Made by a program: the position numbers and the translations under genes
Assembly: GCA_964237295.1 (NCBI GenBank)
Contig: CAXSIE010000001.1
Span: forward strand, 2,137 to 33,253
Direction: 5' to 3'
DNA length: 31,117 bases
Source: an uncultured Flavihumibacter sp.
GTDB lineage: Bacteria > Bacteroidota > Bacteroidia > Chitinophagales > Chitinophagaceae
In this document: in pieces, positions 23,454-29,426 of the stretch
How positions within the stretch are numbered: position 1 is the first letter of the stretch
How the letters are laid out: every line of letters starts with the position of its first letter
Notes under the pieces: model-generated
The model's input: only the letters and a program-made list of their open reading frames with translations
What the model was told of the DNA's origin: nothing
Databases searched by the model: none

Positions 23454-25874
23454 CTATCTGATAAGTGTGATCGTTCCATACCTCTTAATTTTAGTTCCGT
23501 GAAAGTCTGTGCCTTCTGCTATCCAGGTAAATAGAGCGGAGCTTTGAAGGATGCCGTTCAGCCTGCCATCCCATCCATTGGAGCCTGGAGTAAAACGGTA
23601 AACGATACCGCCCCATCTATTGTAAATAGTAAAGTTTGTAAGTTCTCTAATCCCTATAAGAATGGGCCTTGCATAGTCATTGTAGCCATCCCCATTCGGA
23701 GTAAACGCATTGGGTACGTAAATATCAGCCGATGTATAAATTTCAACAGTCACATTATCTGAAGCTTCACAACCGGAAGCTGTTTTGGCGGTAACCCGAT
23801 ACGTGATGTTTTTGTTCAGCGTAGCCACCGGATCTGCAACATTTGGATTGCTGAGTCCGGTTCGAGGTTGCCAGTTGTATTGTATAAATCCGGAGTTGTT
23901 TACATCTACCGCTTTGAGATTAAATGGCTGATTGATAAGTACACTTGTATCATTACCTGCAAAAATCTTCGGAGTAGTTACGGTTATCTTCACGATATCC
24001 GGTTGCACAGATGAACAACCAGCGGCATCGGTTACGGTAAGAGAATATTCCAATGTAAAAGCGGGCTTCACCGAAACGGGATTTGAGCTGTGGCTGGCTG
24101 TAAGGTAGCTGGCTGGCATCCAGTTGAATGTTAGTCCGCCACTGCCTTCCAGCCTTGCATCCTCACCATAACATATAGCCTGGTCCTTTCCGGCGTTTGC
24201 GTGGGGCGCCGCTTTTACAATCACCATAACGGTGTCTGACATGGTACATTTTCCTGTTGTTGCAGTAACGGTATACCGGGTGGTTACAAGGGGCGCAACG
24301 TTCTGATCACGCAGTCCCGGATCATTGATGCCGGGGCCCGGGGCCCACTGGAACATTGAACCATTGGAGTTAACTTTTAAGGAAGCTGTGTTGCCCTCAC
24401 AGATAGTAACCTGTGAATCAAGACTGAGTACCAGGGAATTTTTAAGGGGAATGATCACATCCATCGAGTCAGCACAGCCGTTGCCATCTTTTACCATCAA
24501 TTTATAATTACCACTGGACAGGTTGCTGAATACCGGCGAAGACTGAAAGTTTGCTGATAGGATACTATAAACCAACGGCGATTGTCCGCTGGCGTTTACA
24601 ACGGTTATGCTGCCGTCATTGTCTTCGCAAGAGGCAGCGGTAGCTGCGCCTGAAACCTTTGGCATAGGTTGTCCGCTTATTATAGCGTTAGTTGTATTTA
24701 TTCCACCAGCAATATCTTTAACAGATATTGTGTACTTAGCCGCAGCCAGGCCAACAAAGCGGTTTGACATCTGGTAATTAGTGCCATCAATAGAGTACTT
24801 ATATGGAGCCGTGCCACCGGAACCAGTCACTTCTATTTCACCATTATTCTGGCCACAAGTGGCATCTTTAGTTATTGCTGTTGTTGTAGTACAAGAACTG
24901 ACTAAAGTTGTACTCATGCTTACAGTTAGGCCTCTAACGTCTCTGACCTTAACAAGATAAGTTTCTGCCTTTAGAAAATCAAACTGGTTGGAAGTTTGGT
25001 ATGGCCCGTCATTGATAGAATACTCGTATGGCCCTTCACCCTTGATTGGAATGGCAGTTATGCTACCACCAGTATTACCGCAACCTGCAGCAACAGTTGT
25101 CAGCGAAAGCTGCATTACGCAATTATAGCTCAATTCAATAGAAAATAATCGAACAAAGCCAGTTAAATCTTTAATTCTGATAGTATATACCCCTGGGGCA
25201 AGATTGGTAAAAGTTGCACTGTCCTGGTAATTTATTCCATCCAGGGAATATTTCCTGGGTGGAATGCCCGGAAGCGGATCAACAACAGACAATCTGCCGT
25301 TGTTGCCGCACTTTGGAAAGCTTCCTGATACACGGATAGTATAGCCACAATTCGAAGCAAACAAGTAAACTGTCTCCGGTAATGTATTTCTGCATCCGTT
25401 CGCGTCTTTAACATACACATGGTAATCTCCATGAGTGAGATTTGTGAATACGTTGCTACTTTGATAAGTTAAATCATCGAGACTGTATTGAAAGGGAGGA
25501 GATCCTCCGGACATCATTACAGTCAGGATCCCGTCCAGTTTTTCACAAGAGGAAGGATCTTTTGTACTGAATGACGGGACAGGCGGAATAGAAGTGTTTG
25601 TTATAAAAACGTGTTCGCTTACGATAGTTCCGGTTGCGTCCCTTGTTGCAACAAGATATTCCCCGGGCTTCAAAGAAGTAAAGTTTCCATTGCTGAAACC
25701 CGCTACACCCGCCATTGAGTATTCATATGGCGGAACACCATTGGACGCGACAGCAGTAACGCTTCCATTATTCATTCCGCAGGCTGAAGTGTTAATAGAA
25801 GTTACAGTTAGCTTAAGCTGACTTCTGGCAACAAATGTCAGGAGCAGCAGCAGGATCAAAGGGTAAGGTTTCAT
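23454..25874 (-). CDS. T9SS type-B (gliding motility CTD) secreted protein with SprB repeats
   Basis: Signal peptide; six G.I.V...GG.PPY.YS(I/L)DG SprB-like repeats; three W.P..GL...Y.VT Ig/PKD-like modules; C-terminal IYVPNAFTPNGDGYND...IYNRWG...G.ITLIR. Confidence 0.92.
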   Translation of the reverse strand: MKPYPLILLLLLTFVARSQLKLTVTSINTSACGMNNGSVTAVASNGVPPYEYSMAGVAGFSNGNFTSLKPGEYLVATRDATGTIVSEHVFITNTSIPPVPSFSTKDPSSCEKLDGILTVMMSGGSPPFQYSLDDLTYQSSNVFTNLTHGDYHVYVKDANGCRNTLPETVYLFASNCGYTIRVSGSFPKCGNNGRLSVVDPLPGIPPRKYSLDGINYQDSATFTNLAPGVYTIRIKDLTGFVRLFSIELSYNCVMQLSLTTVAAGCGNTGGSITAIPIKGEGPYEYSINDGPYQTSNQFDFLKAETYLVKVRDVRGLTVSMSTTLVSSCTTTTAITKDATCGQNNGEIEVTGSGGTAPYKYSIDGTNYQMSNRFVGLAAAKYTISVKDIAGGINTTNAIISGQPMPKVSGAATAASCEDNDGSITVVNASGQSPLVYSILSANFQSSPVFSNLSSGNYKLMVKDGNGCADSMDVIIPLKNSLVLSLDSQVTICEGNTASLKVNSNGSMFQWAPGPGINDPGLRDQNVAPLVTTRYTVTATTGKCTMSDTVMVIVKAAPHANAGKDQAICYGEDARLEGSGGLTFNWMPASYLTASHSSNPVSVKPAFTLEYSLTVTDAAGCSSVQPDIVKITVTTPKIFAGNDTSVLINQPFNLKAVDVNNSGFIQYNWQPRTGLSNPNVADPVATLNKNITYRVTAKTASGCEASDNVTVEIYTSADIYVPNAFTPNGDGYNDYARPILIGIRELTNFTIYNRWGGIVYRFTPGSNGWDGRLNGILQSSALFTWIAEGTDFHGTKIKRYGTITLIR

Positions 25875-25949: not shown

Positions 25950-26787
25950 TTATGCTGCTTGTAAGTAATTGATGGCATCAGGAATAAAGACATGCGATTT
26001 ATGTTCAAGGTACTGATAAGCAACCAGAGCTGATAAGATGTTAGCCAACCCATGCAAGGGGTTACGATGACGCGAATGCTCCACATTGCATACAGTGGCC
26101 AGGATATCGTTAACCGATTCTATAACAGCGCGCTGTTTAAGCAGCCTGATATCACCCGGCAGCGCAGCTAAGGGTTTCATGTTCTTCTTTGGCCGCACCA
26201 ACAGGTGAAGCCCTTGTTCATAGAAGGTAACAAACAAGGTGGTTAAGTACCCTTTATCTGCACTATATTTTCCTTGCAGACCTTTCAGTAAATAAGAGAG
26301 CACCTCTTTGTTGTTGTCAGCTGTGTGACCGGCTGTAACCAGAAAGTTTACTATCTCTCCCAGATGATTGATGACCAGGTGCAGCTTCAGGCCATAAAAC
26401 CATCCGTTGCTGCTCTTGCCTTTGGAGGCTTGTTCACTAACTACTTTGTGGCTCTTTTCACGCTTGATGTGACAGACTTCCAGCTTTTTGGAATCGATAA
26501 AGTAGTGGTTTCATCAAATGAAATTTCGTGAAGATTACCTGATAATATATCTCGGCCAGCAGCTTAAAAGGAAGGAGCACCAATGTAAGGCGGGAAAGTG
26601 AATAATACGAGTGTTTGCGGGTAAGAATTGCGTAAAGTACCTGGTAAATTCTACTTACATTTCCAGCCACTTCCAAAATCCATGCTTCATGACGCCCAGA
26701 AAAAAGAACAAGCCGATCAAAAAGAGTACTATTAACCAGTACAGGGTGACGCGGGTGGGTGGATGACGGCGGTAGGACATCTATCAA
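25950..26787 (-). mobile_element. IS982-family transposase remnant (frameshifted pseudogene)
   Basis: Continuous frame from about 26505 to 25950: YFIDSKKLEVCHIKR...GKSSNGWFYGLKLHL...AD...ADKGY...KQRAVIESVND...HSRHR. In-frame stops lie just upstream (about 26510-26516) and the N-terminal part is degraded; TIRs not identified, so boundaries are approximate. Confidence 0.9.
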
Positions 26788-27908: not shown

Positions 27909-27950
27909 TAAAAAATGGTGTATTGATTGTCATTCAATCAAATACACCAT
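27909..27950 (-). terminator. Intrinsic terminator of the tRNA-like RNA pair
   Basis: Minus strand ATGGTGTATTTGATTG-aatga-CAATCAATACACCAT (15 bp, one bulge) followed by a T-run; starts 7 nt past the 3' end of the distal RNA. Confidence 0.82.
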
Positions 27951-27957
27951 TCAAATG

Positions 27958-28127
27958 CTGTAGAGGGAGGACTCGAACCTCCACGGAGTAGTTAGCCTTA
28001 GCACAAAGTTCAGTGGTCGACCCTGGTCGCTCCGGTATTGCTACAAGAACGGCTCTATGCTACGTTTATCCCAATTCCCCACCCCCGAGACAAGAGGGCA
28101 TGTCTGCCAAAATTTCATCACTCCACA
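27958..28127 (-). ncRNA. tRNA-like RNA copy A (GUC anticodon, 99-nt variable-arm domain)
   Basis: Acceptor TGTGGAG/CTCTACA + G73; D arm ATG..AAATTTTGGCAGA..CAT; anticodon arm CCCTC-TTGTCTC-GGGGG; T arm GGAGG-TTCGAGT-CCTCC. Confidence 0.85.
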
Positions 28128-28137
28128 TTATTACAAG

Positions 28138-28307
28138 CTGTGGGAGAAGGACTCGAACCTCCACGGGGCAGTTAGCTATTGCACAAAGTTCAGTGGTCGA
28201 CCCTGGTCGCTTTTATATTGCTATAAAAGCGGCTCTATGCAACGTTTATTCAGAACCCCCACCCCCGAGACAAGAGGGCATGTCTGCCAAAATTTCATCA
28301 TCCCACA
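28138..28307 (-). ncRNA. tRNA-like RNA copy B (GUC anticodon, 99-nt variable-arm domain)
   Basis: Acceptor TGTGGGA/TCCCACA + G73; D and anticodon arms identical to copy A; T arm GGAGG-TTCGAGT-CCTTC; 180-nt period with a 10-nt spacer. Confidence 0.87.
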
Positions 28308-28364: not shown

Positions 28365-28397
28365 CAATATTAATACAACTACCCCGTTAGTTACAAA
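28365..28397 (-). promoter_or_regulatory. Putative Bacteroidota housekeeping promoter for the tRNA-like pair
   Basis: Minus-strand TTTG (28397-28394)-N21-TAATATTG (28372-28365) versus consensus TTTG-N19-21-TAnnTTTG (one mismatch). Confidence 0.5.
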
Positions 28398-28480: not shown

Positions 28481-28951
28481 ATGGCGGTTAAATTTAATCT
28501 TGACAAATTGGATATTCAAATTATTCATGAAATGGTAGAAGATGCGGAAATATCTTATGCCGAACTCGGAAAAAAATTGTTTGTTTCCGGCGGTACCATT
28601 CATGTAAGAATTAAAAAACTTCAGGAATATAAAATAGTCCGGGGTACAAGGTTGGCAGTAGATTTGAAGCAGCTGGGATATGATGTTATCGCTTTCATAG
28701 GAATTTACCTTGAAAAAAGCTCATTATACGATGCTGTAGCAAAGGAATTGAGAAAGATACCCGATATTGTACGACTTAACTACACTACCGGCAATTATAG
28801 CATGTTCGCAGAAATTATTTGTAAAGATATCAACAAGCTTAGGTTTGTTTTACATGATGAACTGCAAAAAATAAAGGGTATCGAACGAACAGAAACCTTT
28901 ATTTCCCTGGAAGAAAGTTTTTCGAGAAACGTTCAGATTACTATGGATTAA
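28481..28951 (+). CDS. Lrp/AsnC family transcriptional regulator
   Basis: LDKLDIQII...ISYAELGKKL.VSGGTIHVRIKKL HTH; RAM domain YTTGNYSMFAEI...IERTETFISL. Confidence 0.95.
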   Translation: MAVKFNLDKLDIQIIHEMVEDAEISYAELGKKLFVSGGTIHVRIKKLQEYKIVRGTRLAVDLKQLGYDVIAFIGIYLEKSSLYDAVAKELRKIPDIVRLNYTTGNYSMFAEIICKDINKLRFVLHDELQKIKGIERTETFISLEESFSRNVQITMD

Positions 28952-29027: not shown

Positions 29028-29426
29028 ATGAAACTATCAAAATATATTCTTTTATCAATTTGTATCATACTTTTCGCAGTAGTTGCTTGTCAAAAAAGTT
29101 CATCAAAAGAAGAATCCCTGGTGGTAGAAACACTGCCGCTGGCAAACGGGCATGTTGAAGCTGCCGCTCCCGGTCCTGATTTTCCATTAACGGTTACCAT
29201 TAAATCTGCCATGCCTTCCGGTGGTGTTAAAATTGATGTTACGGCAAAACCTGATGGCGGTACTGTAGCATTTTTTTCATCTTCAAAAACTACCAGTACA
29301 GCAACAACAAGCTTTAGTATCACAGGCACTACCGCAGGCATTGTGTCATTGGTAGAAATTACCGTTACATCAGTTTCGTCTTCATCAAATAAATGGACAG
29401 GAAGCTATAAGTACTCGAGGAAGTAG
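29028..29426 (+). CDS. Hypothetical lipoprotein (Ig-like, Ser/Thr-rich)
   Basis: Lipobox VVAC; beta-strand pattern. Confidence 0.78.
   Translation: MKLSKYILLSICIILFAVVACQKSSSKEESLVVETLPLANGHVEAAAPGPDFPLTVTIKSAMPSGGVKIDVTAKPDGGTVAFFSSSKTTSTATTSFSITGTTAGIVSLVEITVTSVSSSSNKWTGSYKYSRK

Follow-up and report, generated by a model that had tools for sequence, protein, structure and literature searches.

The window analysed here, a stretch of 31,117 nt from an uncultured Flavihumibacter sp. (Chitinophagaceae), carries on its minus strand two tandem genes for a tRNA-like RNA with a giant variable arm, called copy A and copy B in the following (Table 1). A repeat search of the window found the two copies to be 86% identical at a spacing of 180 nt, and the covariance model R1 of the family scores them with 186.4 bits (copy A) and 182.4 bits (copy B). 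Compensatory differences between them occur in the acceptor, variable-arm and hairpin stems; the acceptor stem reads UGUGGGA/UCCCACA in copy A and UGUGGAG/CUCUACA in copy B. In both, the D stem is formed by A10-U25, U11-A24 and G12-C23, with A13 facing A22; A14, A15, G18 and G19 are all there, and U48 directly precedes the T stem. The elements listed in a preliminary description of this DNA (the UUGUCUC loop, G73, the 3-bp D stem, A13.A22, and A15 with U48) are thus present on the minus strand in both copies. The variable arm begins with a base stem of 4 bp, followed by a 5' bulge and a stem of 3 bp; next come the conserved internal loop GAUAAAC/GCUAAC and a three-way junction, which bears both a hairpin with a GCAA cap and a conserved stretch, ACCAGGGUCGACCACUG. 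Like both RNA copies, 30 of the 34 tRNA genes of this genome encode N73-C74 followed by a nucleotide other than C.

A terminator follows copy B, and hairpin plus U-run terminators are found downstream of homologues elsewhere as well. On the other side, a candidate promoter box lies ahead of copy A, and the motif TAATATTGCA is found again upstream of the RNA in relatives. Given the distance between this box and U1, the transcript would carry a leader needing removal, as in a tRNA precursor. The gene next to copy A in divergent orientation encodes a regulator with AsnC-type HTH and ligand-binding domains according to Pfam. Its best NCBIfam match is AsnC with 156 bits (E 6e-46), under the equivalog cut-off of 227, and the next family follows with 61 bits.

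Table 1. Features of the giant-arm RNA locus, with positions counted along the window.
Feature	Position	Strand	Remarks
Copy A, promoter-proximal giant-arm tRNA-like RNA	28137..28307	-	171 nt; U1 at 28307, G73-C74 at 28138-28137
Anticodon-position loop, copy A	28267..28273	-	U32 U33 G34 U35 C36 U37 C38; GUC at 28271-28269 ('gac' on the plus strand, 28269-28271)
Variable arm, copy A	28163..28261	-	99 nt
Copy B, giant-arm tRNA-like RNA	27957..28127	-	171 nt; U1 at 28127, G73-C74 at 27958-27957
Anticodon-position loop, copy B	28087..28093	-	same sequence as copy A; GUC at 28091-28089 ('gac' on the plus strand, 28089-28091)
Variable arm, copy B	27983..28081	-	99 nt; architecture as in copy A
Intrinsic terminator 3' of copy B	27910..27949	-	14-bp stem 27916-27929/27936-27949, then U run 27915-27910; read from sequence
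Candidate Bacteroidota-type -7 promoter box TAATATTG	28365..28372	-	about 57 nt 5' of U1 of copy A; read from sequence, putative function
AsnC-like regulator gene, divergent	28481..28951	+	codes for 156 aa; separated from U1 of copy A by 173 nt

In the homologue alignment, the helices of the cloverleaf and the variable arm are 95-96% paired, and 32 to 41 of their 52 pairs vary in a compensatory manner. Such values were not attained in any of 500 shuffles, and slid controls drop to about 50% paired. Covariation is seen in the D stem at 10-25 and 11-24, in the anticodon stem at 30-40 (UG, UA, CG, GC, AU) and 31-39, and in both the 7-bp acceptor stem and the 5-bp T stem, which define branch type 7/5; all five helices of the variable arm show compensatory changes. 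G18, G19 and the T loop UUCGA are invariant in 98 homologues. The variable arm itself spans 38 to about 150 nt across the family, and in minimal 38-nt forms it is reduced to the base stems plus the GAYAAA/CUAA loop. Folding of single sequences was uninformative (z = -0.10 for copy B, -2.54 for copy A). An alternative GGCA/UGCC hairpin, suggested by single-sequence folding and RNAalifold, was rejected, since its pairing is disrupted in genome G034 and lacks any covariation; covariation does support the D stem and the 5-bp anticodon stem.

The core of the giant-arm RNA is of the tRNA-Leu type. Applied to the genome's own tRNAs, the family covariance model scores tRNA-Leu genes best (33-43 bits), followed by Ser (27-31), Tyr (26) and Asn (14). 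Because the highest cross-score falls to the tRNA-Leu genes, the Leu-type core proposed in the preliminary description is confirmed. Identity with a class II tRNA-Leu was nevertheless rejected: the 3-bp D stem, A15-U48 and the long arm do match, but GUC and G73 are invariant, and there is neither A73 nor a leucine anticodon. ARAGORN calls no tRNA or tmRNA at the giant-arm RNA genes in the window, and Rfam 15 reports nothing there at the gathering threshold and only chance-level hits up to E = 10; for tmRNA, the Rfam search gives nothing beyond a 9-bit T-arm fragment. A tmRNA was therefore discarded, both on the negative ARAGORN result and on the presence of an anticodon arm. Branch type 7/5, instead of 8/4, 9/3, 8/5 or 9/4, likewise speaks against an Allo-tRNA or tRNA-Sec-like tRNA. 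We found no description of the giant-arm RNA in the literature, and the Allo-tRNA paper does not cover it (PMC5389517).

A covariance-model search without any filter on identity bases yielded a set of 98 unique homologous sequences. G34, U35, C36, C38, G73 and the pairs G2-C71 and U1-A72 are invariant in all 98, and GUC together with C38 is kept also in tandem copies that were not chosen by a sequence pattern. Position 10 is A in 92 of the 98, not G10, which is a minor aspartate determinant in E. coli. Elsewhere in the genome, U1 occurs only in tRNA-Asn and tRNA-Gln. The strong determinants of aspartate identity are G73, G34, U35, C36 and C38, with G2-C71 as a minor one, and G73 in addition blocks LeuRS (PMC9976931). 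G1-C72 is strictly conserved in bacterial tRNA-Asp (PMC9976931) and acts as antideterminant for bacterial GatCAB, the determinant of which is U1-A72 (PMC1635274, PMC2811023). Read from the alignment, the invariant positions comprise the identity set for aspartate together with the determinant for bacterial GatCAB. The latter, U1-A72, was overlooked in the preliminary description; it points to amidation of aspartate to asparagine. GlnRS and AsnRS were discarded as charging enzymes, the anticodon being GUC and not YUG or GUU.

The anticodon loop is the same in both copies, and G34, U35, C36 and C38 are invariant in the homologues, but positions 32, 33 and 37 vary, such that the loop as a whole is not uniformly conserved across the family. 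U33 is near-universal in decoding tRNAs. Among 234 family members, position 33 is U in 196, C in 25, G in 11 and A in 2, that is, U33 is replaced in 38 cases (16%). Position 37 is U in 223, C in 8, G in 3 and never A, thus a pyrimidine in 231 of the 234 (99%). Ordinary tRNAs of the same genome have a purine at position 37 in 34 of 34 cases and U33 in 33 of 34, those in phage arrays in 222 and 221 of 224, respectively, which amounts to deviations of 1-3% per position. With position 33 varied and position 37 never A and nearly always a pyrimidine, the loop appears to be kept for recognition and not for decoding. A signal for queuosine insertion (U33-G34-U35) was considered and dropped, as position 33 varies. 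Taken together, the alignment supports an RNA that would be chargeable with aspartate yet unfit for decoding, and the pair in our window probably encodes a tRNA-derived RNA not used for decoding. Of the preliminary suggestion that the RNA may be charged with Asp or Ser yet be poor at decoding, the unusual position 37 and, on comparative grounds, the aspartate part are supported, while the serine part leaves the invariant anticodon unexplained.

Genuine tRNA-Asp, with G1-C72 and the loop CUGUCAC, exists beside the giant-arm RNA. ARAGORN called no tRNA-Asp on the assembly. A fixed anticodon-arm pattern proved too narrow for tRNA-Asp, and BLAST with a real tRNA-Asp, used instead, located a truncated canonical tRNA-Asp at the end of contig C606. 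Complete relatives hold both a canonical tRNA-Asp(GUC) and the giant-arm RNA. On these two grounds, the giant-arm RNA was rejected as the sole tRNA-Asp of the genome.

Within Bacteroidota, the giant-arm RNA is conserved across several orders (Chitinophagales, Cytophagales and some Flavobacteriales), and it is also carried by large phages; it often occurs in tandem, with up to five copies. On viral contigs it sits in phage tRNA arrays, and a normal tRNA-Asp is found in the same arrays. Four phage variants of 94 nt are called tRNA-Asp by ARAGORN. Cultured carriers include Chitinophaga pinensis, Cyclobacterium, Algoriphagus, Belliella and Terrimonas.

In three sets of loci, an AsnC-like gene adjoins the RNA in 21 of 22, 58 of 81 and 49 of 80 cases, and it is divergent in 48 of the 49 cases of the last set. 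This divergent adjacency extends across orders; the neighbour is missing at the phage copies and at the loci of two families (f4 and f25). A precedent for pairing AsnC with an asparagine synthesis gene is asnC-asnA of E. coli. Neighbourhoods of the RNA loci contain neither a conserved transferase gene nor conserved toxin or defence genes. Rhodanese, OmdA, DUF2911, GH113, Smr and an ABC permease were also considered as conserved neighbours and set aside as lineage-specific and uninformative.

GatB is present in 87 of 87 RNA-positive genomes, a phyletic association that was counted among relatives and could have another shared cause. By sample, GatB is found in 62 of 62 RNA-positive genomes of the order sample and in 28 of 28 of the class sample, against a background of 121/151 and 111/151, and neither sample holds a GatB-negative genome with the RNA. 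The 77 GlnRS-positive genomes of the order sample divide into 43 with GatB and RNA, 4 with GatB and no RNA, 2 with partial GatB and no RNA, none with RNA and no GatB, and 28 with neither; for the 52 GlnRS-positive genomes of the class sample, both occur in 12, GatB alone in 4, RNA alone in none and neither in 36. GlnRS-positive genomes retain GatB almost only alongside the RNA, four or five of them having GatB without a detected RNA. Joint absence of RNA and GatB recurs within families and genera (G079 and G139; G078, G104 and G171; G162; G053; G218; G216 and G295; G179 and G268). Since AsnRS is found in 146 of 151 genomes, GatCAB should not be needed for translation in these lineages. GatCAB is known to be kept despite AsnRS and GlnRS in 67 of 547 genera, and a non-discriminating AspRS acting on tRNA-Asn explains many bacteria with all three enzymes (PMC4206432). 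Retention for Asn-tRNA-Asn by such an AspRS, as in Bdellovibrio, may apply here, too (PMC4206432).

Other routes to asparagine were also tabulated. AsnA takes the place of the RNA within two genera (G053 versus G028; G095, G118 and G152 versus G052), and both occur together in three genomes (G082, G106 and G127). AsnB-family enzymes are encoded in the RNA-positive genomes G012 and G034, hence the RNA route would not be the only one there. As a discriminator, the AsnB profile was abandoned; it is present in genomes both with and without the RNA.

From these observations, we propose a role off the ribosome. Maturation would be tRNA-like, involving RNase P, 3' processing enzymes and the CCA-adding enzyme. 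Ordinary AspRS would then load aspartate onto the RNA; with GUC as anticodon, this would not call for a relaxed synthetase. The Asp-RNA would be taken by GatCAB via U1-A72 and converted to Asn-RNA. For these two steps together, charging by AspRS and amidation to asparagine off the ribosome, we see the chances as about even. The Asn-loaded GUC RNA would be held off Asp codons by the giant arm, the pyrimidine at position 37 and the free position 33, and the asparagine would be released or handed on, leaving a reusable cofactor for asparagine synthesis. In asparagine shortage, the divergent AsnC-like regulator would turn the RNA on, which parallels asnC-asnA of E. coli, and phage copies in tRNA arrays would exploit the same host enzymes. 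The complete scheme is a tRNA-derived cofactor for amino-acid biosynthesis that combines AspRS loading, GatCAB conversion, exclusion from the ribosome by giant arm and altered loop, and a reusable asparagine supply under AsnC control; it would include a reason for GatCAB retention and an auxiliary metabolic RNA gene of phages. We put this scheme forward tentatively, as plausible but somewhat short of an even chance. We know of no reaction by which asparagine would be freed from the RNA. In the D loop, four nucleotides (CAGA or CAGC) separate G19 from the stem, as in tRNA-Leu; the genome's own tRNA-Asn has three. For tRNA-Asp of Neisseria, a supernumerary nucleotide in the D loop acts as an antideterminant of GatCAB (PMC1635274), a rule that may not be transferable, given the three nucleotides in the genome's own tRNA-Asn.

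The same identity and non-decoding evidence would also fit an RNA that is charged with aspartate, perhaps amidated, and, instead of leading to free asparagine, donates its aminoacyl group outside the ribosome, for instance to a lipid, a peptide natural product or a component of the cell envelope. Such a donor would be comparable to the non-proteinogenic staphylococcal tRNA-Gly. The conserved GAYAAA/CUAA loop of the variable arm could be the handle for a dedicated transferase, and RNA-positive genomes already have AsnB-family enzymes. Yet no transferase gene is conserved beside the RNA, the AsnC-type neighbour and the AsnA exchange within genera point to asparagine supply, and the strict dependence on GatCAB would still need explaining. 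We consider such a donor unlikely, though worth keeping in mind.

A regulatory or sensor RNA would make different use of the regulator gene next door and of a structured arm that could bind a partner. Its charging or amidation state would report the supply of aspartate, asparagine or glutamine, or it would titrate AspRS or GatCAB, and GatCAB would be kept for Asn-tRNA-Asn, in line with the explanation by non-discriminating AspRS given above for many bacteria with AsnRS, GlnRS and GatCAB (PMC4206432). However, there is no evident target or effector, the regulator does not accompany the RNA in phage tRNA arrays, and up to five tandem copies are not obviously needed for a sensor, which makes this role rather improbable.

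The preliminary description also suggested a bait for anticodon nucleases. As a decoy for nucleases or toxins aimed at tRNA-Asp or tRNAs with GUN anticodons, the RNA could well keep GUC and C38 while U33 and position 37 become unlike those of real tRNAs, and its location on viral contigs is in phage tRNA arrays, which established work reads partly as counter-defence. Only the phage arrays speak for the bait as it was proposed. A bait does not need the invariant U1-A72, G2-C71, G73 and C74; chromosomal copies are paired with the AsnC-like regulator and found only together with GatCAB; and the vicinity shows no conservation of toxin or defence genes. We regard a decoy as quite improbable.

Little credence can be given to a genuine decoding isoacceptor of tRNA-Asp with an oversized variable arm, for instance as a back-up in stress or for phages. 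Its full cloverleaf, the T loop UUCGA, G18 and G19 and the GUC anticodon would suit such a tRNA, and so would the place among phage tRNAs and the four 94-nt variants that ARAGORN calls tRNA-Asp. Against it stand the replacement of U33 and the pyrimidine at position 37 at rates (16% and 99%) far from the 1-3% per deviation in ordinary tRNAs, U1-A72 in place of the strictly conserved G1-C72, and the want of a short class I variable loop. Moreover, the same genomes and the same phage arrays also contain a normal tRNA-Asp, and the window copies are missed by both ARAGORN and the Rfam tRNA model.

Charging by SerRS, for which the long variable arm, G73 and G2-C71 as well as the presumed serine acceptance of Allo-tRNAs with GUC anticodons (PMC5389517) could be cited, is highly improbable, because SerRS ignores the anticodon and would leave the invariant GUC and C38 unexplained, and in addition the D arm is of Leu and not Ser type, the length of the arm ranges between 38 and about 150 nt, and serine does not figure in the link to GatCAB and AsnC.

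If the asparagine-carrier reading is true, the giant-arm RNA would be the first RNA of tRNA shape to be dedicated to amino-acid synthesis outside the ribosome, and the retention of GatCAB despite AsnRS and GlnRS would be accounted for in Bacteroidota. From the annotation point of view, a widespread and often tandem RNA gene has been missed by ARAGORN and Rfam. The family also constitutes a natural experiment, in which tRNA positions for recognition by synthetase and amidotransferase can be told from positions for decoding.

Among known systems, class II tRNA-Leu shares with the giant-arm RNA the 3-bp D stem, the D loop AAAUU(U)GGYAGA, A15-U48 and a long variable arm. The giant-arm RNA differs by the LeuRS antideterminant G73 where tRNA-Leu has A73, by U1-A72, by an unrelated anticodon arm, and by a variable arm that is 3 to 10 times longer and has a conserved internal loop. 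With bacterial tRNA-Asp(GUC), it has GUC, C38, G73 and G2-C71 in common; it shows U1-A72, U or C at 37, a variable position 33, class II architecture and A10, whereas tRNA-Asp has G1-C72, A37, class I architecture and G10. Allo-tRNAs and tRNA-Sec-like tRNAs are likewise non-canonical, with long variable arms and often GUC and G73 (PMC5389517). Their branches are 8/4 or 9/3 and their presumed identity is serine, in contrast to the 7/5 branch and the invariant aspartate set here, and they were reported from Firmicutes, Proteobacteria and others, not from Bacteroidota (PMC5389517).

Being tRNA-shaped, charged by a normal synthetase and kept from ordinary decoding would be a combination shared with the staphylococcal cell-wall tRNA-Gly and the tRNA-like domain of tmRNA. 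The tRNA-Gly is of normal size and loses EF-Tu or T-loop features, and tmRNA is without an anticodon arm, whereas the giant-arm RNA retains the cloverleaf in full, along with a canonical T loop, and gains the giant arm. Finally, tRNA-Asn in tRNA-dependent asparagine synthesis by non-discriminating AspRS and GatCAB (Thermus, Deinococcus, Bdellovibrio, Helicobacter) shares U1-A72, G73, G34 and U35. Predicted charging by AspRS and subsequent amidation by GatCAB would be common to both, and hosts also have AsnRS and GlnRS (PMC1635274, PMC4206432). The giant-arm RNA has GUC instead of GUU, such that a discriminating AspRS would suffice, and it sets itself apart by the Leu-type core, a structured arm of 38-150 nt, the free position 33, the pyrimidine at 37 and the AsnC-like regulator; with such a core, arm and loop, its product, unlike that of tRNA-Asn, would not enter translation.

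The giant-arm RNA, a tRNA-like RNA family, is represented in the window by two tandem copies, A and B, which share 86% identity at a spacing of 180 nt. The acceptor stem reads UGUGGGA/UCCCACA (copy A) or UGUGGAG/CUCUACA (copy B). Each copy has U8 and G9, a D stem of 3 bp (AUG/CAU) with A13 facing A22, the D loop AAAUUUUGGCAGA, a 5-bp anticodon stem CCCUC/GGGGG with the loop UUGUCUC, a variable region of 99 nt, U48, the T arm GGAGG-UUCGAGU-CCUYC and finally A72-G73-C74. In both loops, GUC corresponds to gac on the plus strand (28089-28091 and 28269-28271), just where the preliminary description had placed it. ARAGORN called neither a tRNA nor a tmRNA in the window, Rfam 15 gave nothing at gathering score and only chance-level matches up to E = 10, and literature searches yielded no description of this RNA.

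Features of the window at and around the giant-arm RNA genes
Feature	Position	Strand	Remarks
Protein with SprB repeats and CHU_C type IX secretion signal	23454-25874	-	806 aa; gliding/adhesion-type surface protein, typical of Bacteroidota
DDE transposase fragment	25950-26303	-	117 aa; matches only the C-terminal part (DDE_Tnp_1_3, profile positions 75-154); remnant of a truncated insertion sequence; distance to the RNA genes about 1.6 kb
Terminator	27949-27910	-	strong hairpin and U-run, 3' of both copies
Copy B	28127-27957	-	171 nt, tandem with copy A
Copy A	28307-28137	-	171 nt, tandem with copy B
Candidate Bacteroidota -7 box TAATATTG	28372-28365	-	upstream of the copies, read from the sequence
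Lrp/AsnC-family protein gene	28481-28951	+	156 aa; opposite strand, 173 nt from copy A
ORF	29028-29426	+	132 aa; directly 3' of the AsnC-like gene, position conserved in 8 related loci; no match in Pfam and NCBIfam

Folding of single sequences did not tell the copies apart from shuffles (z = -0.10 and -2.54) and favours a different pairing for the 5' part of the RNA. BLAST recovered homologues from 23 of 41 relatives. A cloverleaf with five variable-arm helices is 95.1% paired across 28 aligned copies, and 32 of the 52 pairs show compensatory changes; this was matched by none of 500 shuffles, and slid controls were 44-56% paired. A larger alignment (103 distinct sequences) is 95.8% paired, with compensatory changes in 41 of the 52 pairs. 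Covariation is seen in the D stem (10-25 as AU, GC and UA; 11-24 as UA and CG) and in the anticodon stem, where pair 30-40 occurs as UG (61), UA (19), CG (11), GC (5) and AU (3) and 31-39 covaries too, which fixes the register of the 7-nt loop. The question of the predicted structure is settled by these comparative data, not by single-sequence folding.

The Leu-type core proposed in the preliminary description is borne out: The D arm (UGAUGAAAUUUUGGCAGACAU) resembles that of the genome's tRNA-Leu (UGGCGAAAUUGGUAGACG), and the family covariance model, applied to the genome's tRNA genes, scores highest for the five tRNA-Leu (33-43 bits), followed by tRNA-Ser (27-31), tRNA-Tyr (26) and tRNA-Asn (14). 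In the order-wide search, true members reach at least 98 bits and the next class, class II tRNAs of 83-87 nt, at most 59 bits. Within the variable arm, positions 28192-28211 and the homologous stretch 28012-28031 hold a conserved ACCAGGGUCGACCACUG that includes the self-complementary octamer GGUCGACC, replaced by GGUUGACC in other genera. The octamer could pair inside the predicted hairpin, between two RNA molecules, or between the tandem copies.

A sample of 151 genomes from the order (the order sample) was searched with the covariance model, with no filter on particular bases; 62 genomes were positive and gave 98 unique full-length sequences. Invariant in all 98 are U1, G2, U8, G9, G12, A14, A15, G18, G19, C27-C29, G34, U35, C36, C38, G41-G43, U48, the T loop, A72, G73 and C74. 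Position 32 is U in 62 and C in 36; position 33 is U in 83, C in 9, G in 5 and A in 1; position 37 is U in 90, C in 6 and G in 2. Pooling with a wider and a viral set (234 unique sequences altogether) gives U 196, C 25, G 11 and A 2 at position 33, and U 223, C 8, G 3 and A 0 at position 37; since GUC and C38 were part of the search pattern behind the wider sets, these are informative only for positions 32, 33 and 37. GUC and C38 are kept also in extra tandem copies outside the pattern selection. Ordinary tRNAs have a purine at position 37 in 34 of 34 cases in the window's own genome (G000) and 222 of 224 in phage arrays, and U33 in 33 of 34 and 221 of 224, respectively. The loop identity noted earlier between the two copies thus extends among homologues to G34, U35, C36 and C38, not to positions 32, 33 and 37, with a pyrimidine at position 37 in 231 of 234 sequences. 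Judged from the sequences, the loop is conserved but unlike a decoding loop: bases read by the synthetase are kept, and those for the U-turn and for codon-anticodon stacking are free or altered. Three extra tandem copies in which the GUC loop is intact and the D arm or the acceptor stem is damaged (L140:205-375, L140:2-167 and L195:2920-3098) are probably decaying paralogues.

Aspartate identity has five strong determinants, G73, G34, U35, C36 and C38, and G2-C71 as a minor bacterial one (PMC9976931); all of these are invariant in the 98 sequences. G73 is also a LeuRS antideterminant (PMC9976931). The giant-arm RNA differs from bacterial tRNA-Asp, in which G1-C72 is strictly conserved (PMC9976931), by its U1-A72. 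According to Bailly et al., U1-A72 promotes Asp-tRNA amidation by bacterial GatCAB and G1-C72 prevents it (PMC1635274); Nakamura et al. located the recognition of this base pair in a turn of GatB (PMC2811023). Among the ordinary tRNA genes of G000, only those for tRNA-Asn and tRNA-Gln start with U1. ARAGORN found 34 tRNAs in this assembly (93% complete), with no tRNA-Asp among them. The giant-arm RNA was rejected as the cell's tRNA-Asp, since the canonical gene (G1-C72, loop CUGUCAC) is present, truncated by the end of contig C606. Element-bearing relatives, complete genomes included, have an ordinary 75-nt tRNA-Asp(GUC) alongside.

Of the 34 tRNA genes of G000, just four encode a complete CCA end; in the other 30, N73 and C74 are encoded and the next base is not C. 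This pattern suggests a lineage-specific 3'-end rule with a cut after C74 and subsequent addition of CA. In both copies and in every one of the 98 homologues, the encoded end is G73-C74, and the bases beyond it vary. With the -7-type box about 57 nt upstream, a leader would have to be removed. The shared end and the leader suggest that the giant-arm RNA is processed by the tRNA machinery.

The Lrp/AsnC-family neighbour is by far best matched in NCBIfam by AsnC (E 6e-46, full length; next family 61 bits), at 156 bits, which falls below the equivalog cut-off of 227. An AsnC-like homologue adjoins the RNA in 21 of the 22 first loci, in 58 of 81 order-wide loci and, among the matches listed in a scan of all species genomes, in 49 of 80. 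Of the latter 49, 48 are divergent at 125-250 nt from the RNA; they include Cytophagales and Flavobacteriales loci with a protein only 45-55% identical. Families f4 and f25 are without this neighbour, and no other conserved protein neighbour was found at the order-wide loci. In E. coli, the divergent genes asnC and asnA form a regulator-target pair, with asnA activated by asnC at low asparagine.

A pattern scan with one genome per species gave at least 120 loci. The matches listed include Chitinophaga pinensis, C. solisilvae, C. cymbidii, Terrimonas, Hanamia, Ferruginibacter, Sediminibacterium and Flavisolibacter, Saprospiraceae such as Neolewinella, further Cyclobacterium, Algoriphagus, Belliella, Marinoscillum and Parachryseolinea, and some Flavobacteriales metagenome-assembled genomes; among them, the RNA measures 109 to 228 nt (median 153). 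The minimal variable arm of 38 nt consists of a 4-bp stem, a 5' bulge, a 3-bp stem, an internal loop GAYAAA/CUAA and a hairpin cap. Up to five tandem copies occur. The RNA is also found on 42 viral contigs, mostly within phage tRNA arrays (up to 26 tRNAs per locus); several encode ordinary tRNA-Asp and tRNA-Asn as well, and on none of the 42 does an AsnC gene lie near the RNA. Four phage variants of 94-95 nt (L264:1229-1322, L281:7348-7441, L292:2567-2660 and L284:383-477) have A1-U72 instead of U1-A72, are without the GatCAB determinant, carry the loop CUGUCUC or CGGUCUC and are called tRNA-Asp(gtc) by ARAGORN. Such variants may represent intermediate forms that link ordinary class II tRNAs with the giant-arm RNA.

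GatB is present in all 62 RNA-positive genomes of the order sample versus 121 of 151 overall, and in all 28 of an independent class-level sample versus 111 of 151. GlnRS splits the order sample. Its 77 GlnRS-positive genomes comprise 43 with GatB and RNA, four with GatB only, two with a partial or weak GatB and no RNA, 28 with neither and none with the RNA only; for the 52 of the class sample, where partial GatB was not separately scored, 12 have both, four GatB only, 36 neither and none the RNA only. The four GatB-only genomes of the order (G051, G073, G100, G133) are assemblies of 80 to 520 contigs; three of the four in the class show unusual GatB-like frames of about 1110 aa. Open frames of about 1110-1120 aa contain the GatB match (355-363 bits) in family f66 (G212:C19:17848-19227, G255:C47:27577-28959, G292:C8:96830-98209), which suggests GatB fused to another domain; these three genomes have GlnRS and lack the RNA. 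G264, flagged as unpublished, is GatB-positive and RNA-negative in the class-level tally and not among the GlnRS matches; none of the conclusions depends on it. GlnRS is absent in 19 RNA-positive genomes of the order sample, which need GatCAB anyway. Whole GlnRS-negative families, e.g., f19, have GatB and no RNA, and the dependence is thus one-way: the RNA needs GatCAB, not vice versa.

These counts are taken among relatives, which are non-independent; despite this kinship, joint absence of RNA and GatB recurs within families and genera. It is seen in the window's own family (G079, G139), in f25 (G078, G104, G171) and f26 (G162), and in G053 versus its congener G028, G218 versus G261 and G297, G216 and G295 versus G259, and G179 and G268 versus G227. 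AsnA is rare in the order (9 of 151 genomes), and six of the nine lack the RNA. In genus g17, G053 has AsnA and neither RNA nor GatB, and G028 has RNA and GatB and no AsnA; in g48, G095, G118 and G152 have AsnA and no RNA, and G052 the RNA and no AsnA. AsnA and RNA occur together in G082, G106 and G127. AsnB-family enzymes are found both in RNA-positive and in RNA-negative genomes. AsnRS, present in 146 of the 151 genomes, occurs as a contiguous asnS-model match of about 550-620 bits (f1, f4, f7, f19, f25) or as a two-piece match in one frame (about 300 + 170 bits), implying an insertion; in the order sample, this split does not track the distribution of the RNA.

The most economical reading of these comparisons is that the giant-arm RNA would be a tRNA-derived carrier, charged with Asp, amidated to Asn and kept out of decoding. 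The normal AspRS would load aspartate onto it, and GatCAB would turn the bound aspartate into asparagine. Exclusion from decoding would be required, as an Asn-loaded GUC tRNA would otherwise place asparagine at aspartate codons. A weak point is AsnB in RNA-positive genomes, beside which this route to asparagine would not be the only one, and the reading does not account for the release of asparagine. The large D loop may be a GatCAB antideterminant. GatCAB might also have been retained for another reason, a non-discriminating AspRS that acts on tRNA-Asn. Less probable alternatives would make the RNA a sensor, a donor of aminoacyl groups to another acceptor, a true isoacceptor or a nuclease decoy; the last had been considered in the preliminary description beside a charged RNA poor at decoding. 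For an amidated carrier, there is a precedent of GatCAB beside AsnRS and GlnRS in the tRNA-dependent asparagine synthesis on tRNA-Asn of Thermus, Deinococcus and Bdellovibrio (PMC4206432). The giant-arm RNA differs from this route in its GUC anticodon, so that a relaxed AspRS would not be needed, and in its apparently non-decoding design.
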